The notes: generated by a model not told the origin, from the sequence alone. A stretch of DNA of 64,000 nucleotides from an uncultured Eubacteriales bacterium (GCA_964346815.1 CAYFWF010000047.1:890-64889), one strand, 5' to 3'; numbered from the stretch's first letter, positions 1,679 to 15,421 are shown. Numbers and translations are program-made.

Positions 1679-2050
1679 TCAATATCTTCTAAATGAATTT
1701 ATCCTCTCCCATTTCTCTATTTTCAGTCTTCTCCAATAAGCCCAGTCATAAACCCAATCTGGACATCTTTTGACTGTGATTCCTTCCGATCTTAGCCACC
1801 TTTGAATTGCCCTTCTTGGCACATGGAGAAGCCGTGAAGTAGCCCTGACTCCTACAGTCGTTGCTTTTTCGATGGCATATTCCTTCTGTTCTTGAGTATA
1901 GTGTCCTCCTTTAGGATTTAAGCTTTGGAAATAAAGCAATTGTTTACGATTTTCAGCATCAATCCACAATCTGATCAATGCTCTTGTACTTAATTTGTCT
2001 AGTCTATTCATGCTGCCCTCCATAGACCAAGATATCTTCCCATGTGACAA
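1679..2050 (-). CDS. orphan IS-type transposase N-terminal HTH protein (truncated, no DDE domain downstream)
   Basis: HTH segment VGVRATSRLLHVPRRAIQRWLR resembles InsA/IS-family transposase DNA-binding domains; no catalytic ORF follows; only out-of-frame fragments lie in 1380-1680. Confidence 0.45.
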   Translation of the reverse strand: MSHGKISWSMEGSMNRLDKLSTRALIRLWIDAENRKQLLYFQSLNPKGGHYTQEQKEYAIEKATTVGVRATSRLLHVPRRAIQRWLRSEGITVKRCPDWVYDWAYWRRLKIEKWERINSFRRY

Positions 2051-2144
2051 ATAAGTGACAAATTCTGTTGACTAGCGCTGAAGCTATGGTATTCCGGTTG
2101 AAAGACAAAAATGGGGTTTCCCAGGGGAAAACAGAGAAATCAGG

Positions 2145-2215
2145 CTGGCTGGGAAGCAGGGATTCGAACCCCGAATCCATGATCCAGAGTCATGTGTCCA
2201 TGTAGACAACAGCTC
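2145..2215 (-). pseudogene. tRNA-Gln(CUG)-like 3' fragment (anticodon arm + T arm + acceptor 3' strand + encoded CCA); no matching 5' acceptor strand
   Basis: Minus-strand read: catga-ctCTGga-tcatg anticodon stem-loop, GGTTCGAATCC T-loop, cttccca-g-CCA 3' end; the 5' strand tgggaag needed to close the acceptor stem is absent. Confidence 0.4.
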
Positions 2216-2331
2216 GTGGGCCAAATACGGGTCAAAAATGACTGAAAATGGCTGAAACTATGGTAATAGGATTGAAAATCCGAAAGACTTAAAAATCATC
2301 AAAAGGCAAAGATTTCCTGGGTTAACAGGAG

Positions 2332-2418
2332 TGCCGGGGGCCGGACTCGAACCGGCACGTAGGTACAACCTACGAGGGATTTTAAGTCCCTTGCGTCTAC
2401 CAATTCCGCCACCCCGGC
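2332..2418 (-). tRNA. tRNA-Leu(UAA), class II with long variable arm
   Basis: Acceptor gccgggg/ccccggc, anticodon loop cuUAAaa, variable arm cgtaggttgtacctacg, perfect T stem gccgg/ccggc with ttcgagt loop. Confidence 0.85.
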
Positions 2419-2621
2419 ACGCTTAGAATCAATGACTGAGATATTTTAGAAGACGCTATTTTTTTCCGACCGTGTCACCATTCTGCTCGTTATGGGCTGA
2501 AATTATATCACAACCTCATCTTCTGAACAATTGCACCCAAAGGATATGTGCTTTCATTTTATCCGATAATTCTTATATAATCAGTAACTATTATTTTCCA
2601 AATAATTAAAAGGTAAATACA

Positions 2622-3884
2622 ATGAAGAACAAAAGATTTATCTGGTTGCTCACGGTATCGATGCTCATTCTTTCCCCAGGGAACTCTCTATTGGCACAAG
2701 AAAAGTATTCACTCGAAAAAATCGTCGATCTCTACAAGCAGAACAACATTGCCCTGAAGATAAATAAGATGGAAATTGACAATGCCGTCTCCCGAAAGAA
2801 AATCGCCGGAGCTTGGGAAAATCCGTCGATTCGATACATTCAAGAAGGGATCAACATAGGGACTCAAGATAATCCTATTAAAGGAAGAGAATTTCAACTT
2901 GCCATGGAACAGAAGATTCCTCTAAGCGGAAGATTAGGACTGCAGTCAAAGCATGCTGAGCAGGGCATTCATATCGCTTCCGAAGAATACCGGCAAGTCT
3001 TTTGGTCTGGATTATCCTATATCAAGACATTGTTCTACGAGATCCAGTTTCTTAACAATACCCAGGACATCCTGGAAAAAATGAGACAGAAGATCGAAGA
3101 GCTCAACACCATCATAATCGAGAATTATGAACGGGGGGAAGCTTCTGGGATCGACACGGCCCGGATAACAATGATTCTCAAAGACATCGATTTAGAAAAG
3201 TATTCTGTCGATACTTCCTTGGATTTAAAAAAAAGAGAGCTCATCACACTGCTCGATCTCTCGAATGAACCAACACAAATCTCCTTTATGGAACCATATT
3301 ATCATTATGTCATTATCGAAGAAAAAAGCGATTTGAGTCAATCGCTGGTCGAAAATAACCCGCAAATTCAAATACTGATCAATTCACAAAAACGCGAGGA
3401 AATCCAGTTGTCTCTCGAAAAAAGGAAAAACTTCCCGGATCTCACAGCAGCCGGAGGATACAAAAAAGAAGATCTCTATGACACATATGCTTTTTCTTTA
3501 TCTCTGAACATTCCTCTATTTAACCAGCACGGAGGAGAAATCCAAGTCGCAAAAAACAATATGAGGATGAACGAACTGCAGCAAAGACTGATCACGAAGG
3601 AATTATTGGAGGCGTTTGAGAGAGAACACGCAAAGCATCTTAAGTCAAAAGAGCTCATTCAGCTGTTCAAAGCTCAATATCTGAGCCAGGCAGATAAACT
3701 GGAAAACTCTACGGTGGCAGCCTACAAAGGAGGCGAGGTCAATATGCTCGTCCTTGTGGACGCCCTCCAATCGGCCCTCAAAACCCGTCTCGAATTCATC
3801 GATCTAATCCTGCAAAACAATGTCGCTGTCTTCAACATCGAAAAAATGATAGGCAGGGAGATCGATTCGGAGAAAATACAATGA
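2622..3884 (+). CDS. outer-membrane efflux protein (TolC/CzcC family) of an RND system
   Basis: Signal peptide; ~420 aa with two coiled repeat halves typical of OEP family; 4-nt overlap with downstream MFP gene. Confidence 0.8.
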   Translation: MKNKRFIWLLTVSMLILSPGNSLLAQEKYSLEKIVDLYKQNNIALKINKMEIDNAVSRKKIAGAWENPSIRYIQEGINIGTQDNPIKGREFQLAMEQKIPLSGRLGLQSKHAEQGIHIASEEYRQVFWSGLSYIKTLFYEIQFLNNTQDILEKMRQKIEELNTIIIENYERGEASGIDTARITMILKDIDLEKYSVDTSLDLKKRELITLLDLSNEPTQISFMEPYYHYVIIEEKSDLSQSLVENNPQIQILINSQKREEIQLSLEKRKNFPDLTAAGGYKKEDLYDTYAFSLSLNIPLFNQHGGEIQVAKNNMRMNELQQRLITKELLEAFEREHAKHLKSKELIQLFKAQYLSQADKLENSTVAAYKGGEVNMLVLVDALQSALKTRLEFIDLILQNNVAVFNIEKMIGREIDSEKIQ

Positions 3885-5449
3885 AAAACAAATTCTTATT
3901 TTTCGGCGCTTTATTGGTCTTTACATACATTACTTCTCTTTGTATAGGGTGTACGGCAAAAAAAGAAAGTGCAGAGCCTGATTATTCTGTCTCATTGACG
4001 GATTGGAGCGATAAGCTCGAAGTGTTTATGGAATACCAAATGCCTACCCCTGGAGAAGAAATAAGTTTTGGCGTTCATGTAACGGATTTGAGTGATTTCA
4101 AACCCATCACAGAGGGAACACTGGCTCTTGTTTTCGTCAACCGCACCTCCGGACAAAAATCCGAAGCTCGAGCGGAAAATCCCATAAGGGACGGGATCTT
4201 CTCACCAAAACATACTTTTACCGAACCGGGAGAATACGACTTAGGCCTGACGCTCGAATCCGAAAAGGTCACGGATACCATGGACCTTGGAACTCTTGAG
4301 GTCTTCGAATCTTTATCGCTGCCTGAAAACGATGAAAAAATGTCCATCGATGAGGTGACTTTCCTCAAAGAGCAGCAGTGGAAAATGGAGTTCGATGTTG
4401 AACCCACAGAAATGCGGACCATCACGAACACCGTATCTGCTCCTGGAAAAATTATTGCTGCCCTCTACAGAATGGCGAAAATAAGTCCCCCACTTGACGG
4501 CAAAATAACATTAGACAAAAACGTCGTTCTGCCAAAACATGGGGATATGGTCAAATCAGGAGACATCCTCGCAATTATCGAACCATCTCTTGCATCATTC
4601 TCGAATTCTGACGGATACCAGATCGATCTGGAAGTGAAAAATTCCGAAACAAAACTCAAACTCGCTCAAAGCGAAGTGGAAAGACTGCGTGCGCTGTATG
4701 AAAAAGAAGCAGTTCCCAAAAAGAGACTGCTGGAAGCAGAAGCCGAACTGAATATCGCAGAGGCAAATTATAATAAAGCCATTAACAAGAAAGCGGCCTT
4801 CCAAAACATAAAGCTCCAGCCAGGTTCTGATTCCCAAAGCCCCTATTATTATGTCCGGGCACCCATCGACGGAAAAATAGTCGACCTGACATACACGCTG
4901 GGGGAACAGATCAAAGCCGGCGACATCATCATGACTGTACTCGACGATTCGAAAGTCTGGCTCGACATTGCCGTCTTCGAAAACGATATCGCCAAAATCA
5001 AAGGCTCATCCGGCGGGTACTTTACGATGACAGATAAAAGCCAGACATTCAATTTAGCCCAATACGATGGAGAATTGTTCTTTTTTGGTACAGTCATAGA
5101 TGAGAGCACAAGAACGATCTCCGTCATTTATGAGTTATCGAATCCGTCCAGCGAATTTTTGGTCGGCTCGTTCATCACCGCGCACCTGAATACGGCCGAG
5201 AACATTCAGACGATAAGCATCCCCAAGTCTGCCATATTTGACTCCGGAGGAAAAAAAGTCTGCTTTGTTCAGATCGGAGGGGAATCCTTTGAAAAGAGGG
5301 TCATTGAGCTGGGAATCGAAGGCCAAGACCATTTTCAAGTCCTCAACGGCCTTCAATCAGGAGAAAAAATCGTTGTTAAGGGAGGGTATGCCATTAAATT
5401 AGCAGCAGAGTCTTCCAGCAAAGATGTGGGAGAAGGACATTATCATTAA
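3881..5449 (+). CDS. RND efflux periplasmic adaptor (HlyD/CusB/CzcB family) with ~150-aa N-terminal extra domain
   Basis: Coiled-coil hairpin (EVERLRALYEKEAV...LLEAEAELNIAEANYNKA) and beta-barrel/MP domain motifs; position between OMP and RND genes. Confidence 0.8.
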   Translation: MKNKFLFFGALLVFTYITSLCIGCTAKKESAEPDYSVSLTDWSDKLEVFMEYQMPTPGEEISFGVHVTDLSDFKPITEGTLALVFVNRTSGQKSEARAENPIRDGIFSPKHTFTEPGEYDLGLTLESEKVTDTMDLGTLEVFESLSLPENDEKMSIDEVTFLKEQQWKMEFDVEPTEMRTITNTVSAPGKIIAALYRMAKISPPLDGKITLDKNVVLPKHGDMVKSGDILAIIEPSLASFSNSDGYQIDLEVKNSETKLKLAQSEVERLRALYEKEAVPKKRLLEAEAELNIAEANYNKAINKKAAFQNIKLQPGSDSQSPYYYVRAPIDGKIVDLTYTLGEQIKAGDIIMTVLDDSKVWLDIAVFENDIAKIKGSSGGYFTMTDKSQTFNLAQYDGELFFFGTVIDESTRTISVIYELSNPSSEFLVGSFITAHLNTAENIQTISIPKSAIFDSGGKKVCFVQIGGESFEKRVIELGIEGQDHFQVLNGLQSGEKIVVKGGYAIKLAAESSSKDVGEGHYH

Positions 5450-5465
5450 ATAACAAAGAGGCAAC

Positions 5466-8400
5466 ATGCTTAGCAAAATCATAAATTGGTCCTTATCGAA
5501 CAGAGCGATCGTCATTTATTTGACAGCATTGCTGTTGATCCTGGGAGTTTACATAACATCCCGGATTCCGGTAGATGTTTTCCCTGATCTGACCGCTCCC
5601 ACGGTCACGATTCTCACCGAAGCTCACGGAATGGCGCCGGAAGAAATTGAAATATTGATCAGCTTTCCGATCGAATCGGCCCTCAACGGGGCGGCAAACG
5701 TAAGAAGGGTACGATCCATATCAGCCATCGGATTATCTATCGTCTGGGTTGAGTTTGATTGGGGAATGGATATATACAATGCGCGCCAGATAGTCAACGA
5801 AAAACTTCAACAGGTCGCAGCCCAACTTCCCCCTGAAAGCGATCCTCCTTTCATGGCACCTATCTCGTCGTTGATGGGAGAGATTTATTTGGTCGGACTC
5901 ACAGGAGAAAAGGCCTCTCTTATGGAGCTGCGATCAATCGCTGATTGGGAGATAAGACGGCGCCTCCTCTCGGTCCGTGGCGTATCACAGGTCATTCCCA
6001 TTGGAGGAGACGTCAGACAATATCACGTCACCGTCGATCCCTTAAAAGCCAAGGAATACGGAATCTCTCTTCAGAAAATCGATGCGGCAATCGAGCAATC
6101 CAACGAAAACTCTGCCAGCGGCTTCACCGTTCAGTCAGGCATGGAATACATCATCAGAGGGCTGGGAAGGATACAGGCTTTGGAGGACCTAAAGAATTCT
6201 GTGGTTACGATAATAGAATCCAAGCCTATTCTCTTGAAACACATAGCCGAAGTATCTATAGGTCCAAAAATTATCCGTGGGACTGCTTCGATCAATAAAC
6301 AACCTTCGGTTATCGTGTCAATCATGAAGCAGCCAGATGTCAACACCCTGGAATTAACCAGAGAGATTGAGGATGTTCTCGCGGACATTCAATCGAAACT
6401 TCCTTCGAACATCCAGATCAACACAGAAATCTTCAAACAGTCTGATTTTATCAATGTCGCCGTCTCCAACGTTTTTCATGCCATAAGAGATGGAGCCATT
6501 TTGGTTGTGATCATTCTTTTCCTATTCCTGCTCAACTTCCGGACCACTTTCATCGCTTCCCTGGCCATTCCTCTCTCATTGCTCATCACGGTAATCGTCA
6601 TGAAGCTGGCAAATATCACGATCAACACCATGACCCTGGGAGGGATGGCTATCGCAGTGGGGATATTGGTTGACGATGCCATAGTCGATATCGAAAACGT
6701 ATTCAGGCGGTTGAAACAGAACATGCACCTACCCGAGGAAAAGAAAAAAAGCATCTTCCAGGTAGTCTACCAAGCTTCAAATGAAATCCGGCACCCGATC
6801 CTGTTCGCCACTCTCATCATCATCCTGGTATTCGCCCCGCTTTTTTTTCTCAGCGGTTTTGAAGGCAGGTTGTTGAGACCTCTTGGATTGACATACATCC
6901 TCTCCATTTTTGCCTCCTTGATCGTGGCCGTGACCGTGACTCCTGTCCTGAGTTATTATCTCCTCCCCAGCCTGAAAATTCTCAAACGGGAAGGCGATAC
7001 GCCAGTCGTTCGATATTTAAAGGCACTTTACAAGCCAATCCTTCAAAAAGTTCTCAAGCACCCAAAATCAGTGCTTATCGTGGCCTTTTCTCTGGTTGTC
7101 GTATCTATCGGTGTCATTCCCTTTTTGGGAAGGAGCTTCCTCCCGAGTTTTAACGAAGGAACTCTCACTTTGAGTGTGAATACAGCTCCTGGAACGTCGC
7201 TTTCCGAATCCGACAAAATCGGCAGCATGGTGGAGACAATCCTTCTCGAGCAGCCAGAGGTTTCATCTACAGCCCGAAGAACAGGTCGAGCCGAACTCGA
7301 CGAACATGCCCAAGAGGTCACAGGAGCGGAAGTGGATGTCAGACTGACCATGAAAGACCGCAGCAAAGCGGATTTTTTGGCTGAGCTGAGGAGACAGCTC
7401 TCTTTGGTTCCAGGCACTTTTATCGGTATCGGGCAACCGATCTCCCATCGCATCGATCATCTTCTTTCCGGCACGAAGTCACAAATCGCAGTAAAGATTT
7501 TCGGGCCAGATATATACATGTTACGGACCTTAGGAAACAGCGTCAAGGACCTCATGGAAGATATCGACGGAGTTGTCGATCTCGCCATCGAACAGCAGCA
7601 TGAAATCCCCCAAATCCAAATAAAGTTCAACCGCATCAATATGGCAAGGTTCGGTTTAAGGACACATGAAGTCGCGGAAAATATCGAGATAGCCTTTCAA
7701 GGAAAAATCGTTTCCCAGATCCTGGAAGGACAGCGCTCATTCGACGTTGTGTTGAGATACGGAGAAGAATTCAGGAAAGATATCGAGTCGATCAAAAGAA
7801 CCCTTATAGATACACCCTTAGGGGAAAAAGTGCCTTTGCTACAAGTGGCTGATATCCGATATGAAAATGGGCCCAACTTCATAAGCCGTGAAGATGTTCA
7901 GAGAAAAATAGTCGTCCACTGCAACGTAGCAGGAAAAGACCTCAAGAGTGTTATAGACGCCATCGAATCGAAAATTGCAGAAAGCATCGTCATCCCTCCG
8001 GATTATTACATCTCATTCGGAGGACAATTCGAAAGCGAAGAAAAAGCTTCGAGGATCATCCTTCTGGTGAGTCTGCTCTCCTTGTTAAGCATTTTCGTTC
8101 TGCTTTCGATCTCCTATCACTCCATCAAATCAGCGATGCTGATCATTATCAACCTACCCCTGGCTCTAATTGGAGGGATTGTAGCTGTGCTGCTTTCAGG
8201 GGGAACTCTGAGTATTCCTTCTCTTGTTGGTTTCGTTACCCTCATCGGGATAGCCACCAGAAACGGAATCATGCTGATCTCGCATTACAACCATCTCATA
8301 GAGGAAGAACAAAAGTCCCTGGACGAAGCGGTTATGCAGGGATCTCTGGAACGGTTGATCCCTATTCTCATGACAGCTCTGACAACGAGTCTCGCTCTTA

Positions 8401-8555
8401 TACCCTTAGCAATTAGAGGAACCGCGCCCGGTAATGAAATTCAATCTCCCATGGCCATTGTCATTTTAGGCGGGCTAGTGACCGCGACATTTCTCAACAT
8501 GATCGTCATGCCGGTTTTGTTTCACAGATATTTCAAAGAGAGGGCTAAGGCATAA
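5466..8555 (+). CDS. heavy-metal-efflux RND transporter (CusA/CzcA family)
   Basis: 1029 aa, 12-TM RND architecture; TM4 motif GILVDDAIVDIENVFRR aligns to the HME-RND A/D-x5-D-x6-E signature and gives the A...D...E pattern seen in CusA. Confidence 0.85.
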   Translation: MLSKIINWSLSNRAIVIYLTALLLILGVYITSRIPVDVFPDLTAPTVTILTEAHGMAPEEIEILISFPIESALNGAANVRRVRSISAIGLSIVWVEFDWGMDIYNARQIVNEKLQQVAAQLPPESDPPFMAPISSLMGEIYLVGLTGEKASLMELRSIADWEIRRRLLSVRGVSQVIPIGGDVRQYHVTVDPLKAKEYGISLQKIDAAIEQSNENSASGFTVQSGMEYIIRGLGRIQALEDLKNSVVTIIESKPILLKHIAEVSIGPKIIRGTASINKQPSVIVSIMKQPDVNTLELTREIEDVLADIQSKLPSNIQINTEIFKQSDFINVAVSNVFHAIRDGAILVVIILFLFLLNFRTTFIASLAIPLSLLITVIVMKLANITINTMTLGGMAIAVGILVDDAIVDIENVFRRLKQNMHLPEEKKKSIFQVVYQASNEIRHPILFATLIIILVFAPLFFLSGFEGRLLRPLGLTYILSIFASLIVAVTVTPVLSYYLLPSLKILKREGDTPVVRYLKALYKPILQKVLKHPKSVLIVAFSLVVVSIGVIPFLGRSFLPSFNEGTLTLSVNTAPGTSLSESDKIGSMVETILLEQPEVSSTARRTGRAELDEHAQEVTGAEVDVRLTMKDRSKADFLAELRRQLSLVPGTFIGIGQPISHRIDHLLSGTKSQIAVKIFGPDIYMLRTLGNSVKDLMEDIDGVVDLAIEQQHEIPQIQIKFNRINMARFGLRTHEVAENIEIAFQGKIVSQILEGQRSFDVVLRYGEEFRKDIESIKRTLIDTPLGEKVPLLQVADIRYENGPNFISREDVQRKIVVHCNVAGKDLKSVIDAIESKIAESIVIPPDYYISFGGQFESEEKASRIILLVSLLSLLSIFVLLSISYHSIKSAMLIIINLPLALIGGIVAVLLSGGTLSIPSLVGFVTLIGIATRNGIMLISHYNHLIEEEQKSLDEAVMQGSLERLIPILMTALTTSLALIPLAIRGTAPGNEIQSPMAIVILGGLVTATFLNMIVMPVLFHRYFKERAKA

Positions 8556-8587
8556 CCTGCAAAATGTATAATAATATGGAGGATAAA

Positions 8588-9421
8588 ATGAGAAAAATTG
8601 GTTTGACTTTAATGGCTATTATTTTTTTGTTTGCTGTTTCTGTCACAATTCTTGCTCATGATTTTTGGCTTGTCCCTAAAAAATTCAGGATTTCCCCAGG
8701 TGATTCGTTGATTATTCTGGCCAATACGGGAATGGATTTCCCGAACAGCCTCAGTGCAGTAACCCCAGATAGAATCGACCAGTTTGTACTTGCAGGGGAA
8801 TCAACAAAAGAGAATATTACAGAATTTACTGTCGAGGGGAACTCTCTTGCTGCGAATTGCTCTTTCGGAAAACCTGGGACTTTTGTCATCGCGGCGGCTT
8901 TGAAGCCCAACGAGATCAAATTGACAGGGAAAGAATTCAACGAGTACCTGCTTGCCGATGGCCTTCCCAACATTTATGAGCTCAGGAAAAAAGAAGGAAT
9001 CCTCCATAAAGACGCTGTCGAGTATTATTCCAAATATCCCAAGACAATTATCCAAGTCGGAAACAAAATTGACGATTCCCCGACAAAACCAATAGGCCTT
9101 CCCATCGAAATCGTCCCAAAGGTCAATCCTTATAAATTAAACAAAGGAGATGAGCTGGAAGTTTTGGTGCTTTTCCAAGGGAAGCCGCTTCCGAATGCGG
9201 AAATTGCGTGGAGTTACCCAGGACGGGGGGAAGAGTTTGCCGGCTCAGCAAAAACAGATGAATCAGGACAGGCATCTATTCCTTTGATAAAAGCCGGGCC
9301 ATATGTCATCAGGCTCACTCATATGGAATGGGTCAAAAAACCGACACGTGAATGGGAGAGCTATTGGACTTCTCTGACCTTCGAGGTTATATCTAACAAT
9401 AATTCTCAATCCCAAAACTGA
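8588..9421 (+). CDS. periplasmic protein, possibly DUF4198-like metal-binding protein
   Basis: Signal peptide followed by HDFWLVP start of mature protein; RBS GGAGG before ATG at 8588; all-beta composition; follows RND gene in the same orientation. Confidence 0.45.
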   Translation: MRKIGLTLMAIIFLFAVSVTILAHDFWLVPKKFRISPGDSLIILANTGMDFPNSLSAVTPDRIDQFVLAGESTKENITEFTVEGNSLAANCSFGKPGTFVIAAALKPNEIKLTGKEFNEYLLADGLPNIYELRKKEGILHKDAVEYYSKYPKTIIQVGNKIDDSPTKPIGLPIEIVPKVNPYKLNKGDELEVLVLFQGKPLPNAEIAWSYPGRGEEFAGSAKTDESGQASIPLIKAGPYVIRLTHMEWVKKPTREWESYWTSLTFEVISNNNSQSQN

Positions 9422-9461
9422 GACCAAAATTTGAGGATCGTTTTAATTCCAGAAAATAAAT

Positions 9462-10658
9462 TCACTCCTGGTGGCTATTCTCAGGAATTCGTTTCAGAAG
9501 ATCATCCAAAAGTTTTTTAGCTTCTTCATTATCCGGTTCCAACTCCAGTGCTTTTTTTATACTCTGAATACTCAGATCAACCTTGTTCAACTGAACATAT
9601 GCTTTACCTAAGTTAACGAAGCCATTTGCAGACTTTGAGTAAATGGATACAAAATATGTATAAAGTTCAACTGATTGTTGAGATTCATTGTTTCCCAAAT
9701 ACCTTTGGCCGACGGTGTTAAGGATGTCAGGAGGGGGAAGGACTTTGAATCCGAACCGTTTCGTTAAGGTCTCATAGTGCTTTTTTATGAAATCCAAGGT
9801 TCCACTCCTGAAGAATTCTAGCTCTGGAATCCACCCTGAAAAGAGATTCATCAATCCTTGATAAAATCCCTTTATGGGAACGTGTCCCTCACCCTCAAAT
9901 ATGTCAGAGTCCCACTTAAGTCCCAGATTTTCCTTATTATGGAGCAGGGCGTCGAATTTTCTTATTCCTTCATGAAGTTCTTCAGGTTCATTTCCTCCTC
10001 CTGAAAAGTACAGGTATTTATGGGACAGCAATTCGCCAGGAATTTCATCCAATCGATCGGATAAAAATTGTAGTCGCTCTTCGTTTTGAAGGACCGGACT
10101 GGATGCGATAAAGGCGGAAAACATAGCGGGATCCTTGAGGAGAATATAGGCTGTAAAAAAGCCAGCCAAGGAATGTCCAACCAGAATCCTGTACTCATGG
10201 ATCCGGTATTTTTTCTCGAGGTGGACAAACAATTCCTTTTTGAGAAAACAAATGAACTTTTCAGAATCCTTGATTGCCTGTGGATCGCTTGTCCTGCATG
10301 GATCCAGATCCCTCCTTCTGTCTGTATTGGGAATCCCCACAACGATCATTTGGGGGAGATAGTTGGGGGATATCATGTCCACAATACTCACACAGTACCG
10401 AAATGCCCAATCGCCATCGAGGACAAGCATAAGAGGATAGGACCCGTCTGAGCTTTCAAAATTATCCGGAAGATAGATCTCCAACGGCCGCCATTCACCT
10501 AAGATCTTAGAGAAAATTTGAGTTCTGTGTCCAATGATAATATTCTCGTCAATCTCTTTTTTTTGCGTATTTTGCATGGATTGAGCTGGAAAAATTTGTA
10601 TCATACAAAGTACAAAAAAAAGAAAAACAAGACACATTTTTGAGTTCATAATTATCAC
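9462..10658 (-). CDS. secreted esterase (esterase-D/enterochelin-esterase-like alpha/beta hydrolase) with C-terminal TPR
   Basis: Signal peptide; GHSLAG nucleophile elbow; C-terminal TPR-like segment (LGKAYVQLNKVDLSIQSIKKALELEPDNEEA). Confidence 0.65.
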   Translation of the reverse strand: MIIMNSKMCLVFLFFVLCMIQIFPAQSMQNTQKKEIDENIIIGHRTQIFSKILGEWRPLEIYLPDNFESSDGSYPLMLVLDGDWAFRYCVSIVDMISPNYLPQMIVVGIPNTDRRRDLDPCRTSDPQAIKDSEKFICFLKKELFVHLEKKYRIHEYRILVGHSLAGFFTAYILLKDPAMFSAFIASSPVLQNEERLQFLSDRLDEIPGELLSHKYLYFSGGGNEPEELHEGIRKFDALLHNKENLGLKWDSDIFEGEGHVPIKGFYQGLMNLFSGWIPELEFFRSGTLDFIKKHYETLTKRFGFKVLPPPDILNTVGQRYLGNNESQQSVELYTYFVSIYSKSANGFVNLGKAYVQLNKVDLSIQSIKKALELEPDNEEAKKLLDDLLKRIPENSHQE

Positions 10659-10920
10659 TCCACTTTCTAATTTTGACCAATATTATTTATTTAAATATTA
10701 TCACCGTCTCCCAGAAATCGCCAATTTCTCCTTTAAAGAAGTAAGAATATATTCATTTTGACTCGATAATCTCCCTGTGTTACATACTACAAGAATAGCA
10801 ACTATGCAGATGTTCATGTTCTATGTGAAATCTTGGAAACAAACAGGATAGATACTTATAGGAAAAATAATTGTTGAGCGTAATATTTAAAAATTAAACT
10901 CAAAAGTAGGGAAAGGGCAA

Positions 10921-11541
10921 ATGAAAAGCAAAGGCATATCAATTTTAACAGGGCTGATTTTTATTCTCATTTTTAGTCTAAACGGACAAGAAATGCCGCA
11001 GAACTGGAAAGCCAAAACACTTTGGGAGAGCATTGAAAAGATTCAGAGAGTAATAGTTGGCGATATCGATCCAAATCATAAAGGAGACGAAATCATTTCA
11101 GTAACTCAGAAGGGTGAAGTCGTCTATACGCTCGAATCCCCTGATGGATGGGTAAACGATATTCTCTGGGTTGACACGGCCTCTCTAACAGGAGCAGCAA
11201 TAGGTGAATTGGATACTGGTCACCCAGGCAGAGAGGTTATCGTGGGAGGCGCGAGGGGAGTTTCAGAGGAAATATACAGGGACAAAGACGGCCTGCGAGG
11301 TGTGGCAGTTGCAGATATCCAGCCAGATATCCCGGGTAATGAAGTGGCTATCTTCGGCTATGCGAAAGATATCATTATGATTTATCCAAAAAACGGCGAG
11401 TGGGTGACAGAGACTCTGTGGACTGATTCAGACCGTGCGCACAGCCTTTCCTGTGGAAACTTTTCACCCTCTACATCCTGGCAGGAATGCGTGGTAGGAG
11501 GCTATTCAAAAAAGGTCACTGGAATCTTCTACAAAAAATGA
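10921..11541 (+). CDS. secreted FG-GAP/VCBS-like repeat protein
   Basis: Signal peptide; repeated D-x-D/N-x-D-G motifs (GDIDPNHKGDEI, GELDTGHPGREV, ADIQPDIPGNEV). Confidence 0.45.
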   Translation: MKSKGISILTGLIFILIFSLNGQEMPQNWKAKTLWESIEKIQRVIVGDIDPNHKGDEIISVTQKGEVVYTLESPDGWVNDILWVDTASLTGAAIGELDTGHPGREVIVGGARGVSEEIYRDKDGLRGVAVADIQPDIPGNEVAIFGYAKDIIMIYPKNGEWVTETLWTDSDRAHSLSCGNFSPSTSWQECVVGGYSKKVTGIFYKK

Positions 11542-13115
11542 GAATCCCCTCTTCTCTTAAAGGCGAAGTGAAGAAAGTAATCTTAGGACTGTTTTTTATC
11601 AATCTGATGATAGCGAGTTTTGCCCTAGAGAGCAGAGGAGCTGAGGTTAGAAAAACTCCGGCCATAAAGATCTCCTCGCCTGTTAAAATCGATGGGAATT
11701 TGAGCGATGAGGCGTGGGAAAATATAGATCCTATAAGAGACTTCATCCAATTTTCCCCGTTCCATGGCGAACCATCCCCTCTGAAAACAGAAGTTAGGAT
11801 TGCCTATGACGACGAATCGATATACTGTGGCTTTTACTGCATTGACCTTGATCCTGAGAAGATCTCCGCCAGCATCACCAAAAGAGATGCGGAATTCGAA
11901 CAGGATGATACAGTTATCGTTATGCTCGATACTTTCAACGACAATCGCACATGCTATCTATTTGCAACCAATCTTCTGGGGACACAATTCGATGGCAAGG
12001 TCGCGGATAACGGACGCTCAGAGGACGATAGCTGGGATGAATCTTGGCAGTCAGCAGCTCAGCGAGTGGAGGATGGATGGATTGCAGAAATCGCTATACC
12101 CTTTTCCATTCTCAAGTTTAAAAGCGGAGAAGGCAGGATATGGGGGCTTAATATCGGAAGAAACTATCCCCGAACTCTCGAGACAAGCTTTTGGGTCGGC
12201 CCTCTCGAAAAGGAGAATCGTGTATCCCAGTTTGGAAAATTGGTGGACCTTGATCTTCAGCCTAAAGGAAAAAGACTGACAATCATGCCCTATGGTCTCT
12301 CTCAAGTTCAGGAAGACAAGAAATGGGAAGGAAAGGCAGGAATTGATTTTCGTTATCCATTCACCTCAAACCTAGGAGCGGATATCACCATCAATCCTGA
12401 CTTTGCCACTGTAGAAGCCGATGTAGAACAGATCAATCTTACGCGTTTTGAACTCCGCATCTCCGAAAAGCGGCCTTTTTTTCTGGAAGGATCTGAATAT
12501 TTTAGAACTCGTATCAATCAATTCTACTCACGCCGCATCGGTGACATACCGTGGGGGGCAAAACTGACAGGCAAAATTGGCGGCTGGAATATAGCCCTCA
12601 TCAACGCTCAGTCAGATCCTGCTTCAACTGGAGCAATTCCCGAAAGCGAGGAAAAAAAAGCACTCTACAGCGTATTCCGCACCCAGAGGGATATATTTGG
12701 AAACTCTAATATCGGTCTCATCTTTGCTAACAGAGCATACAAAGGAGAAAACAGCGGCTCAATAGGAATAGATACGACTCTCTTTTTTACAAGAACTTTA
12801 GGAATGACTGCACAATTTGTTAAGAGTCATGGTCCCGTTAAAGACGGTACCTGGGCCTGGTTTATTCGACCCGCATTTGACAGCGCAACAGGCCATTTCC
12901 ATATTCGGTACTCCCACTGGGGCGAAGGATTGATGGAGAATATGAACTCAATTGCTTATATCCGAGATGACGACCGAAAGGAAATAGACTCCAATCTCTC
13001 TAAAACTTTCTGGATAAGAAAAGGTTGGTTTGAGCGCATCCAATTTACGACAAACTACAATCGATACTGGAGCCAGGAAGGAGTCCTGAGGAGCTGGGAT
13101 TCGAGTTCACGATAA
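11538..13115 (+). CDS. secreted DOMON/CBM9-like domain + large beta-barrel protein (DUF5916-like); probably truncated by an in-frame stop
   Basis: ATGA overlap start; signal peptide; N-terminal motif KIDGNLSDEAWENIDPIRDF; ORF ends at TAA 13113-13115 but the same frame continues with plausible beta-strand sequence. Confidence 0.5.
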   Translation: MRIPSSLKGEVKKVILGLFFINLMIASFALESRGAEVRKTPAIKISSPVKIDGNLSDEAWENIDPIRDFIQFSPFHGEPSPLKTEVRIAYDDESIYCGFYCIDLDPEKISASITKRDAEFEQDDTVIVMLDTFNDNRTCYLFATNLLGTQFDGKVADNGRSEDDSWDESWQSAAQRVEDGWIAEIAIPFSILKFKSGEGRIWGLNIGRNYPRTLETSFWVGPLEKENRVSQFGKLVDLDLQPKGKRLTIMPYGLSQVQEDKKWEGKAGIDFRYPFTSNLGADITINPDFATVEADVEQINLTRFELRISEKRPFFLEGSEYFRTRINQFYSRRIGDIPWGAKLTGKIGGWNIALINAQSDPASTGAIPESEEKKALYSVFRTQRDIFGNSNIGLIFANRAYKGENSGSIGIDTTLFFTRTLGMTAQFVKSHGPVKDGTWAWFIRPAFDSATGHFHIRYSHWGEGLMENMNSIAYIRDDDRKEIDSNLSKTFWIRKGWFERIQFTTNYNRYWSQEGVLRSWDSSSR

Positions 13116-13530
13116 TCCCCCACACTGACAAACAAGTGGGAAATCAGGTTGAATCACGACGAGGATTTCAAGCGCTATGAAAAAGATTTCCGCAACCGTG
13201 AAACGAGCTTGAGTATCGGCTACGACACCAGAACGGGAAGGTCTTTTTCCAAACCAATTCTGTTATTGACAAAAAAATGTTCAGGTTGTCTTCGTATGGC
13301 GATTTCTCCCGCCTTTTGGCTCTCTTCAGATTGCTTATCAAAGAGGCACATCAGGGTTCGGCACAAAATCAGATCAAGGGCATACATTATTTACTAAGCT
13401 ATCCTGGGTATTCTAAAGACCGAAGAAAAATACTGGCTTTTTTTCCATTTAAACTTTACATGCATAAAAAGTCTTATACCTTACATCGAAATACAAAAAT
13501 CCTTAAACGCTCCATAGGAACAAGGTAAAT
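13116..13530 (+). pseudogene. decayed 3' portion of the preceding gene (same frame after TAA, then frameshifted)
   Basis: ORF 13149..13397 is in the same frame as 11538..13115 (NHDEDFKRYEKDFRNRETSLSIGYDTRTGRSF...); no RBS or start of its own. Confidence 0.35.
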
Positions 13531-13774
13531 GTCCTATTTCCGCTCTCATTTTTTTCCGTCAAGTCTACTCACCAGCAGAAGTCACGGGATTAAATCCTAT
13601 GACTCCTAGTTTAATTCCAGGGACTTCTCAGGGACAAAAACATGACAAAATAGACCAAAACTGATTGTTTACCCTTGTTTTCGTCTATTTGCCGTGGTGA
13701 CATTAAATATTATGTTTTCAAAGGATTAGTGCCGAGGTCCGGACTCGAACTGGTACGCAGGCTCACTTACGAGC

Positions 13775-13787
13775 GATTTTAAGTCCC
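13775..13787. repeat. 13-bp direct repeat GATTTTAAGTCCC (copy 1) = anticodon stem-loop of tRNA-Leu
   Basis: Exact 13-nt match with 13965-13977; also present in intact tRNA at 2378-2390. Confidence 0.9.
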
Positions 13788-13964
13788 CTGTTCCATCAAA
13801 AATCCACCGTGTCCTTCTTGTGTCCCTCTTCTGCACAGGAGTATGCAGACTATACAGATAATTGGGAAAATACACATCTCCCTATTTTTCCAAAATCTGC
13901 TGATTTTTCAGTAAGTTACTGGCTTTTAATGCTTTACAGAAAAACTCGAATTCTCTTTCCTGAT

Positions 13965-13977
13965 GATTTTAAGTCCC
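13965..13977. repeat. 13-bp direct repeat GATTTTAAGTCCC (copy 2)
   Basis: Exact match; flanks the 177-bp insert. Confidence 0.9.
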
Positions 13978-14257
13978 TTGCGTCTACCAATTCCGCCACC
14001 CCGGCATACCAAGTGAGGGGATTATATCATAATCCTAAAACCCCAACAAGCTCTGGGAATTTCCATGCAGTCCACTCCTTACAAGGATTGCTTCAATCCA
14101 TATATCGACCCGCGTTGACATCGATGACTTCTTTCCATTCTTCGCCCTCTATGGACAGCAAAAACGAATGAGGCCCCGAGGTTCCCGCAGTATGATCCGA
14201 GTTGACATGGACCCAGACAGTGATAGAATAAGTTTAGAAGTGGGAGTGTTTGAAACG

Positions 14258-15421
14258 ATGCGCACAATTCTTTTTACCGGAAAAGGAGGGGTGGGGAAAA
14301 CCACACTCTCTGCAGCTACGGCTCTGCAATGCGCAAACAAGGGATACAGAACCCTTGTTATTTCTACCGATGCCGCCCATTCTCTCTCCGACTCTTTCGA
14401 AACTCAACTCTCCAGCCAGCCCAAAAGAATTGCGGCCAACCTTTTCGGTCAGGAAATAAACGCCCTGGAGGAAATAGAGAAAAATTGGGGGGATATCAAA
14501 AGCTATTTGAGCGCCCTCTTCTCTTCTCAGGGAATAGACGAGATAGAAGCCGAAGAGATGAGTGTTTTCCCGGGCATGGAAGAGCTGTTCAGCCTGATGG
14601 AAATCCGCAACTATAACAGATCTTCCGAATATGATGTCATTATCGTAGACTGTGCTCCCACAGGGGATACCTTGAGGCTCCTCAGCGCTCCGGAAATCAC
14701 CAACTGGTACCTCAAACACATCTTTCCCATCCAGAGAACCGCGGCCAGGGCCGTAAGGCCTGTGGCTAACCGGGTCCTTCCCTTTCCTTTCCCTGAAGAT
14801 AAAGTCTTCGGCGCCATGAAGAAGCTGACTACCCAGCTGGCCGAGATGAAAGAAATCCTTTCCGATTCCCAAAAAACGACCGTCCGCCTTGTGGTCAATC
14901 CAGAAAAGATGGTCATCAAAGAGGCGCAGCGGGCATTTACATTCTTCAGTCTCTTCGGCTATGCCGTCGACCTTATCATCGTAAACAGGGTGATTCCTCC
15001 GGATATACAGGATGCGTACTTTGATAAATGGAAGGTCATTCAATCTGGATACCAAAGGAAGATCAAGGAGTGTTTTTCACCCATCCCCATATTTTCATTG
15101 GAGCTTTTAGAAGAGGAAATCATTGGTACAGAGCTGCTCTCTCGGATAGCGAAAAAAATATACGGCAGAAAAGATCCAGCCCGGATTTTTCTCTCTCAAA
15201 AGCCTGTCGCTATTCAGAAGGCAGACGGCGGATTCGATATGCTCCTGAATCTGCCTTTTCAGAAAAAGGCCGATATAGACCTCTACAAGAACGGCGATGA
15301 GCTGATCATTAAAGCGGGCAAGTTCAAAAGGAACATCATCCTTCCGCCGACGTTGATCCATTATTCGATCAAAAGCGCGAAGTTCGAAGAAGAAAAGCTT
15401 AGAATAAGCTTCCGCCAATAG
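14258..15421 (+). CDS. ArsA/GET3-family ATPase with C-terminal HSP20-like domain
   Basis: Deviant Walker A GKGGVGKTT; ArsA signature DCAPTGDTLRLL; C-terminal alpha-crystallin-like segment (DLYKNGDELIIKAGKFKRNIILP...KLRISF); GGAG RBS before ATG at 14258. Confidence 0.8.
   Translation: MRTILFTGKGGVGKTTLSAATALQCANKGYRTLVISTDAAHSLSDSFETQLSSQPKRIAANLFGQEINALEEIEKNWGDIKSYLSALFSSQGIDEIEAEEMSVFPGMEELFSLMEIRNYNRSSEYDVIIVDCAPTGDTLRLLSAPEITNWYLKHIFPIQRTAARAVRPVANRVLPFPFPEDKVFGAMKKLTTQLAEMKEILSDSQKTTVRLVVNPEKMVIKEAQRAFTFFSLFGYAVDLIIVNRVIPPDIQDAYFDKWKVIQSGYQRKIKECFSPIPIFSLELLEEEIIGTELLSRIAKKIYGRKDPARIFLSQKPVAIQKADGGFDMLLNLPFQKKADIDLYKNGDELIIKAGKFKRNIILPPTLIHYSIKSAKFEEEKLRISFRQ

Follow-up and report, generated by a model that had tools for sequence, protein, structure and literature searches.

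A fixed, recombinase-less composite islet at the tRNA-Leu(UAA) gene of a Candidatus Aminicenantes locus

How does a tRNA gene come to stand on one side of a heavy-metal efflux operon and a second copy of its 5' half on the other? This question is raised by a locus within a 64-kb stretch of DNA (GCA_964346815.1 CAYFWF010000047.1:890-64889; the window, from whose start all coordinates are counted), in which an intact tRNA-Leu(UAA) gene and a broken copy bracket a block with an operon of the heavy-metal efflux resistance-nodulation-division (HME-RND) type. A preliminary description of the same DNA had taken the block for an island, now fixed and decayed, whose integration brought a new 3' half of the tRNA and displaced the original one. 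The former idea holds in outline: since no recombinase was found and one cargo gene is a pseudogene, the element can be regarded as fixed, and the locus is a recombinase-less composite islet of the known class of genomic islands in tRNA genes (tDNA islands). The latter idea has to be given up, because the duplicated piece is the 5' half and the intact gene lies far from the ArsA gene that anchors the locus. The islet has the rare orientation of its class.

The duplicated 5' half and the empty site

The gene for the ArsA/Get3-type ATPase (14258-15421, plus strand; Pfam, synteny) is the first of the right-hand anchor and groups the window with Candidatus Aminicenantes. A set of about 40 related loci (L-numbers below) was drawn from collections of genomes and metagenomes, and all of them keep the right-hand order ArsA, AF_1253, CDP-OH_P_transf, a TonB-type outer-membrane protein (OMP), GlmS, GlmU, LpxC and DnaG. 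None of the relatives has more than one tRNA-Leu(UAA) upstream of ArsA, where it lies on the minus strand, and about 25 of the related contigs have a single one there. The tRNA gene lies 150-350 bp from ArsA in L087-L090, L094, L098, L002, L003 and L177, and is separated from it by ars-type cargo (ArsR, ArsP, thioredoxin) in L081-L085 and L091-L093.

In the window, the intact tRNA-Leu(UAA) gene (2331-2418, minus strand) was identified by ARAGORN and Rfam (60 bits). It is 98-99% identical to the tRNAs of L087 and L094 and is presumably functional. A repeat search of the window returned an exact 42-nucleotide (nt) direct repeat, 2378-2419 and 13965-14006, with 100% identity, as the preliminary description had stated for two copies in the same orientation. 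Since the gene lies on the minus strand, with its 5' end at the high coordinate, the repeat is its 5' half with the anticodon loop; it runs from tRNA position 1 to about 40, ending 2 nt beyond the loop. Copy 1 (2378-2419, minus strand), the left boundary of an 11,587-bp unit, forms the 5' part of the intact tRNA, whose 3' part continues leftwards into a flank of the L094 type. Copy 2 (13965-14006, minus strand) carries zero mutations, terminates at ...CTTAAAATC, and is identified by comparison with relatives as the displaced 5' half of the resident gene. A regenerated tRNA and a displaced fragment in the same orientation thus mark the two ends of the block, as in tDNA islands. The 42 nt are 100% conserved in the tRNA-Leu genes of most relatives, so that the identity of the two halves says little about age and is no proof of recency.

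The most informative relative is L094, whose ArsA protein is 91% identical and whose right flank has 84% nucleotide identity over 7 kb. It has one intact tRNA-Leu, 174 nt from ArsA. Window positions 2142-2418 match L094 3549-3825 at 96%, and the part outside the tRNA (2142-2330 against 3549-3737) at 95%, or 180 of 189 positions. On the other side, 13965-14049, which comprises the 5' half and the first 43 nt upstream, match L094 3785-3869 at 87%, and the ArsA promoter comes next. As judged from these alignments, L094 keeps collinearity with the window to the left and to the right of the block, and precisely 11,587 bp, the stretch from one repeat copy to the other, are missing from it. The synteny comparison suggested in the preliminary description thus yields a single tRNA-Leu in relatives and effectively an empty site in L094. 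The whole tRNA also stands beside the same upstream region in the deeper lineages L098 and L177, which indicates that the uninterrupted state is ancestral, and the window is accordingly read as derived by insertion.

The regions next to the tRNA parts point the same way. We refer to the regions upstream of the two tRNA copies as uI and uA, to the downstream flanks as d' and dB, and to a 174-nt spacer in the broken copy as Z. Downstream of the intact tRNA, d' (2217-2330) is common to L094 over its full length and to L091/L092 over the proximal 54 nt. Upstream of it, uI (2420-2567) is homologous to L081/L083 and L091/L092, in which its counterpart is the region between tRNA-Leu and the ars-type cargo. 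The resident upstream region uA (14007-14200) shares its proximal 45 nt or so with L087-L090, L094, L098 and L177. Finally, dB (13520-13727; 70-78% identity by blastn, and alignment) lies beside a 3' fragment of the broken copy, and its homologues form the downstream flank of tRNA-Leu in L081, L083, L087-L090, L095, L099, L101 and L109. All four flank combinations occur among the relatives, d'/uI in L091, dB/uA in L087, d'/uA in L094 and dB/uI in L081, which makes the tRNA-Leu a recurrent crossover point. When the ends of the insert are joined, the order becomes dB-[3' fragment]-Z-[5' half]-uI, and apart from Z this is the flank set of the single tRNA-Leu of L081/L083.

The two flank sets look like diverged versions of one ancestral locus. 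d' and dB are weakly similar, with a common motif equally far from the tRNA end (a score as high was obtained in 27 of 1000 shuffles), and a TGATATAAT box is present in both uI and uA. Each upstream region also has a TATAAT. In uI it corresponds to 2502-2507 read on the complementary strand and belongs to an extended -10 element, TGTGATATAAT (2502-2513), that lies 83 nt before the tRNA; this element of the insert-derived uI is the predicted promoter of the intact tRNA. In uA it is the complement of 14021-14026, 15 nt before the displaced 5' end.

The decayed 3' fragment (13728-13790, minus strand; repeat search) covers tRNA positions of about 25-76. It is 85-88% identical to the 3' part of the intact gene and has the same orientation, in line with the earlier remark that the 3' halves differ. 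One anticodon-stem mismatch, two broken pairs of the five in the T stem and a weakened variable arm account for its damage. At family-invariant positions, 4 of 33 are changed in the 3' fragment and 0 of 42 in the displaced 5' half (Fisher one-sided p = 0.034), an asymmetry consistent with a 5' half that still served when the event took place and a 3' fragment that by then had no function. The decay of the 3' fragment and the flank identities are seen directly in the alignments, and they do not allow the broken copy to be treated as one disrupted paralogous gene, as had been proposed: its 5' piece is resident, and its 3' piece lies inside the insert with its own downstream flank of about 200 nt.

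A proposed insertion, recurrent breakpoints and the spacer Z

We propose that the 11,587 bp (2420-14006, or equivalently 2378-13964) were inserted into a resident tRNA-Leu(UAA) by Campbell-type recombination with circular DNA, a reading to which we give even weight for and against. The incoming circle would have carried a tRNA-Leu locus of its own, of dB/uI type, together with the cargo (the HME-RND operon, an esterase and two secreted proteins). One reciprocal crossover between this circle and the resident d'/uA tRNA, within the 42 nt from the anticodon loop to the 5' end, would then have produced both junctions. The working gene at 2331-2418 would consist of the resident 3' half, still with d' and a tRNA-like remnant beyond it, and of the 5' half and promoter region of the insert; that the functional gene draws these from the insert follows from the duplicated piece being the 5' half. 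The resident 5' half with its own TATAAT would have been pushed 11.6 kb off to the side of ArsA, abutting the vestigial 3' half of the insert, which after recombination would be redundant, hence its decay. The circular state of the incoming DNA and the direction of the event are what we infer from this arrangement. For the crossover itself, both a tyrosine integrase acting in trans and RecA-dependent homologous recombination were considered.

Breakpoints at the anticodon loop recur among the relatives, which favours a site-specific enzyme. A lone tRNA-Leu 5' half in the distant relative L132 (746-787) ends at the same nucleotide as the displaced half of the window, and the 3' fragments of the window and L083 begin at the same nucleotide (CA[A/G]GGGA). 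The L132 locus extends only 745 nt to the left of its lone half. Next to that half are genes for a ComEA-like protein and a reverse transcriptase (RVT_1), and a 688-aa protein is encoded after the latter (1925-5325), a neighbourhood that is possibly a defence cluster. Displaced 3' fragments of the standard kind stand 3.3 kb downstream of the intact tRNA-Leu in L083 (431-501) and 8.9 kb downstream in L099 (644-702). The segments they enclose hold pairs of PadR and MacB/FtsX permease genes, and in L099 also genes for DNA-alkylation repair and for Fe-S and aldo-keto reductase proteins; no integrase was found in either segment. A continuation of these fragments into d' or dB was considered and was not supported by comparison.

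A 13-nt core from the anticodon region, GATTTTAAGTCCC (16 nt with one mismatch), occurs at 13775-13787 and again at 13965-13977, and Z (13791-13964) lies between the two. Z resembles a noncoding segment that follows the MacB gene near tRNA-Leu in L099 and L101 (79% over 131 nt). In L099 this homology reaches a core-like GATTTT..GTCC (2 of 2000 shuffles). A decayed 5' half beside Z in L099 was rejected, since its tRNA part was matched by 131 of 2000 shuffles. The central 21-27 nt of Z are also found directly upstream of the ArsA promoter in L081-L085; such a remnant would be expected as the leftover of a Z-[5' half]-uA junction that was later deleted. As a part of the insertion model, and with the same evenly balanced standing, Z would be a scar left at that anticodon-loop site by another event. 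An origin of Z from a miniature inverted-repeat transposable element or insertion sequence (IS) was rejected, as it has neither terminal inverted repeats nor another copy in the window nor a match among viral contigs.

Z also contains a 27-nt motif, ATGCAGACAATACAGATAATTGGAAAG, which is the same at L081 3802-3828 and L099 9341-9367 and has a close variant at window 13842-13868. L081 and L099 share it identically despite ArsA genes of only about 71% nucleotide identity, and in L081-L085 some 10 nt separate it from the -35 box of the ArsA promoter, which lies downstream. The motif may be a protein-binding site.

Insertion weighed against its rivals

Several observations weigh against the proposed insertion. 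The two-copy structure is limited to one lineage, namely the window and its 99.86% identical twin L174. The donor form, a split tRNA on a circle, was not observed. The model alone leaves Z and the duplicated 16-nt core unexplained, so that at least one extra event is needed, and single-step site-specific schemes for the order dB-3' fragment-Z-5' half (alternative cores, tandem elements, excision and re-integration) all needed an extra deletion or an illegitimate junction. Neither the block nor the ars cargo of relatives nor the L099 island contains an integrase, excisionase, transposase or conjugation gene. The asymmetry between the two tRNA pieces reaches only p ~ 0.03, and the 42 nt could also owe their identity to gene conversion from the intact copy. 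As for L094, the left module 2142-2330 is 95% identical to it, compared with 84% for the right-hand 7 kb; this module may itself be mobile or constrained, which complicates the use of L094 as an ancestor. The direction of the event rests on parsimony, and L094 could have arisen by a precise deletion between the 42-nt repeats.

This deletion is central to a different history, in which an old locus had two tRNA copies (d'/uI and dB/uA) with the cargo between them, the relatives with a single copy descended from it through deletion between the copies (L094) or the loss of either of them (L087, L091), and the ArsA-proximal copy of the window decayed as redundant. Deletion between the repeats would yield exactly L094; both copies carry a diverged wider unit, with the downstream motif and the TGATATAAT box; and the remnant of Z in L081-L085 suggests that the Z junction is older than the split from that clade. 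Yet none of the approximately 40 related loci keeps two copies, the dB/uI combination of L081 is not obtainable by deletion, and gene conversion is required for the 5' half to be unmutated when the 3' part has decayed. We consider this history unlikely. It is also rather improbable, in our view, that the ArsA-proximal copy was wholly resident, like that of L087, and was broken in place by a small insertion or scar, Z, the intact tRNA with uI and the block being an unrelated replacement of the left flank that brought a back-up tRNA. Such a history would explain why dB with the 3' fragment and the 5' half with uA both match L087-L090, and the duplication of a short core without reconstruction recalls tRNA-dependent lysogeny (PMC10865867). 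It requires two independent differences from any relative, in place of one in the comparison with L094, puts the compensating tRNA outside the split and not inside it, and leaves the 0 of 42 against 4 of 33 asymmetry unaccounted for. The DUF4198 gene on the 3' side of the tRNA in L003 would speak for it, but that junction is unreliable: in L003, NN (9753-9756) stands exactly where the DUF4198 gene meets the tRNA-Leu 3' end.

The remaining explanations carry far less weight. The classical tDNA island, in which an element with an integrase would have delivered a fresh 3' half, the divergent 3' fragment being the one it displaced, finds precedent in the displaced 3' fragments of L083 and L099 and in the standard extent of the window fragment (positions 25-76). 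Against this stand the position of the intact gene distal to the ArsA anchor, the outer repeats being 5' halves, the location of the 3' fragment 174 nt from the proximal 5' half instead of at the far end of the block, and the lack of an integrase in the block; we regard it as highly improbable. An assembly chimera of two strains, or of a circular element and the chromosome, at the shared 42 nt has to be considered for a metagenome assembly, all the more as several related contigs break near tRNA-Leu. However, the repeat is shorter than a sequencing read and a 69.8-kb NCBI contig with 99.86% identity covers the same region, so that misassembly appears very improbable. In L174, NN (3511-3512) stands in for 16 nt of the tRNA-Leu variable arm, and the junction there is not trustworthy.

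A group I intron at the anticodon of tRNA-Leu(UAA) is known from cyanobacteria, and a functional split tRNA or one with a degenerate intron of this kind would agree with an insertion point in the anticodon loop and with the TATAAT kept 15 nt upstream. The predicted 279-nt transcript even folds with its halves paired (z = -3.9). Nevertheless, Z has no match to Intron_gpI or any other Rfam family at E <= 10, with 174 nt it is too small for a group I core and also too rich in AT, the anticodon region occurs twice and is not split, and the T and anticodon stems of the 3' part are broken. We therefore rejected this explanation, to which we attach almost no probability.

Returning to the insertion, the loci may belong together in a wider scheme: an Aminicenantes family of non-autonomous elements with an attachment site at the 5' half and anticodon loop of tRNA-Leu(UAA), which would be mobilised in trans by a recombinase, replace the 5' half and promoter of the tRNA, and have their cargo swapped (ars in L081/L091, HME-RND here). 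We put this forward as a speculative and rather doubtful extension. If it were true, the vestigial 3' half would record an attachment site of the element (attP) evolving from a complete captured tRNA gene.

Cargo, neighbouring features and known systems

The gene content of the block agrees with what the preliminary description had listed (Pfam, NCBIfam). The HME-RND operon (2622-9421, plus strand) encodes an outer-membrane factor (PF02321 OEP, 2622-3884), an RND adaptor or membrane fusion protein (3881-5449; TIGR01730, 150 bits against a cut-off of 94.9), a CusA/CzcA pump of the ACR_tran family (5466-8555; TIGR00914, 844.5 bits against 701.45) and a periplasmic DUF4198 protein (8564-9421; Pfam), all on the plus strand. 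The CusCBA/CzcCBA heavy-metal efflux systems likewise unite an outer-membrane factor, an adaptor and a pump of the CusA/CzcA family in an operon, and the window operon differs from them by the extra DUF4198 protein after the pump. An esterase with C-terminal TPR repeats (9462-10658, minus strand; Pfam PF00756 and TPR families) and a 206-aa secreted protein without a Pfam or NCBIfam family match (10921-11541, plus strand) follow. The last cargo gene is a CBM9/DUF5916 outer-membrane-type pseudogene (11487-13260, plus strand; Pfam and comparison with a homologue in L128). As noted before for this secreted beta-rich protein, an in-frame stop cuts it short (TAA, 13113-13115), with coding-like sequence on to about 13260. 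Compared with the L128 homologue of about 830 aa, it lacks the C-terminal 100 or more residues, a truncation that is probably an illegitimate junction at the inner end of the insert. The right end of the insert thus reads DUF5916 pseudogene, about 260 nt of other sequence, dB, 3' fragment and Z.

The RND operon is 83% identical at the nucleotide level to an operon of L175, which lies in a tRNA-free context, and the homology begins at 2568, just past uI. In L175 (3484-3691 and 15967-16763), roughly the last 200 nt of the DUF4198 gene are present once more, with 92% identity, upstream of a MacB/PadR pair, and BrnT/BrnA toxin-antitoxin genes lie nearby. A circular wrap of the cassette in L175 was rejected, since the second DUF4198 3' end has only 92% identity and is what remains of a former copy.

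Pfam and NCBIfam scans of all open reading frames (ORFs) of the block and of those in 13116-14171 returned no recombinase. This agrees with the earlier statement that no integrase is present, and traces of an integrase pseudogene, for which it had suggested a search in 13116-13730, were not found there. The composition of the block, proposed earlier as a further check, is mildly atypical and deviates only weakly: its GC content is 0.436, against 0.445-0.473, and its tetranucleotide distance 0.143, against 0.100-0.120 in four control chunks.

To the left of the block, 115 nt downstream of tRNA-Leu, is a tRNA-like remnant (2149-2216, minus strand) with a Gln-type CUG anticodon arm, a T arm, an encoded CCA and a broken acceptor stem. 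The homology with L094 ends 7 nt past its 3' end, at 2142; beyond this point the window has a 123-aa ORF (1679-2050) with sub-threshold similarity to HTH_17 (excisionase type), and L094 has PadR/MacB. The regions 2142-2330 and 1679-2050 look like the edge of another mobile or constrained module. Of the two features that had been placed outside the block, the tRNA fragment is present, with an Rfam score of 27.5 bits, below the cut-off of 29; the IS-type helix-turn-helix remnant is reduced to sub-threshold HTH_17 and HTH_23 matches (E = 0.03-0.06). Within dB (window 13597-13640; L087 about 9480-9530), a hairpin resembling a T arm (L087: ACAGGGTCGAATCCTGT) occurs together with ATTTTAA(G)TCCC, which resembles an anticodon loop; the pair suggests an older, decayed tRNA fragment from earlier events at the site. 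At the ArsA end, the ArsA promoter (14202-14229, plus strand; TTGACA-16-TAGAAT with TG in the spacer) is conserved in all relatives, whatever stands upstream of it: tRNA, ars genes or, in L176, a gene resembling those of short-chain dehydrogenases/reductases.

How does the locus compare with known systems? The Islander catalogue covers genomic islands integrated in tRNA and tmRNA genes, for which the anticodon stem-loop is a classic sublocation (PMC4383910). The window shares with them cargo in a tRNA gene, a regenerated tRNA and a displaced fragment as direct repeats, an empty site in a relative and a breakpoint in the anticodon stem-loop. Unlike these islands, its outer displaced piece is the 5' half instead of the 3' half, the upstream region of its working gene (2420-2567) differs from the resident one (14007-14200), and its block is without a tyrosine or serine integrase and holds a vestigial 3' half with its own flank. 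A closer geometry is known from the pTN3-like archaeal integrases of Thermococcus, for which the chromosomal attachment site (attB) is the tRNA 5' half and the recombinant tRNA is expressed from a promoter of the element, an integration mode that a review calls "seldomly encountered in bacteria" (PMC8371274). As in pTN3, the window element replaces the 5' half, must supply the promoter and has the displaced 5' half at the other junction, and its repeat starts at the tRNA 5' end and stops 2 nt after the anticodon loop, at the breakpoint also seen in L132. The host is bacterial, unlike in pTN3, the block encodes neither a self-splitting integrase nor one of another type, and homologous recombination is equally possible. 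In the tRNA-dependent lysogeny of mycobacteriophages, a short common core lies in a tRNA gene, the junction is not reconstructed and a compensating tRNA is carried inside the prophage (PMC10865867). The Z junction resembles this in its short core (about 10-16 bp), the lack of reconstruction and the compensation by a second tRNA of the same isotype, but only 174 nt separate the halves in the window, the working tRNA is 11 kb outside, and there are no phage genes.

In summary, the locus shows a heavy-metal efflux operon's route into the chromosome in an uncultured phylum of sediment and groundwater. The junction between tRNA-Leu(UAA) and ArsA stands out as a hot spot of recombination, where the flanks are combined in at least four ways and several sets of cargo occur. 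Its geometry in the window, with the 5' half and promoter of the tRNA donated by the insert and a decayed 3' half kept, is uncommon in bacteria, and island finders that expect displaced 3' fragments and an integrase would overlook such a locus. If a dedicated recombinase exists, the 5'-half integration mode of the archaeal pTN3 plasmids would be extended to bacteria.

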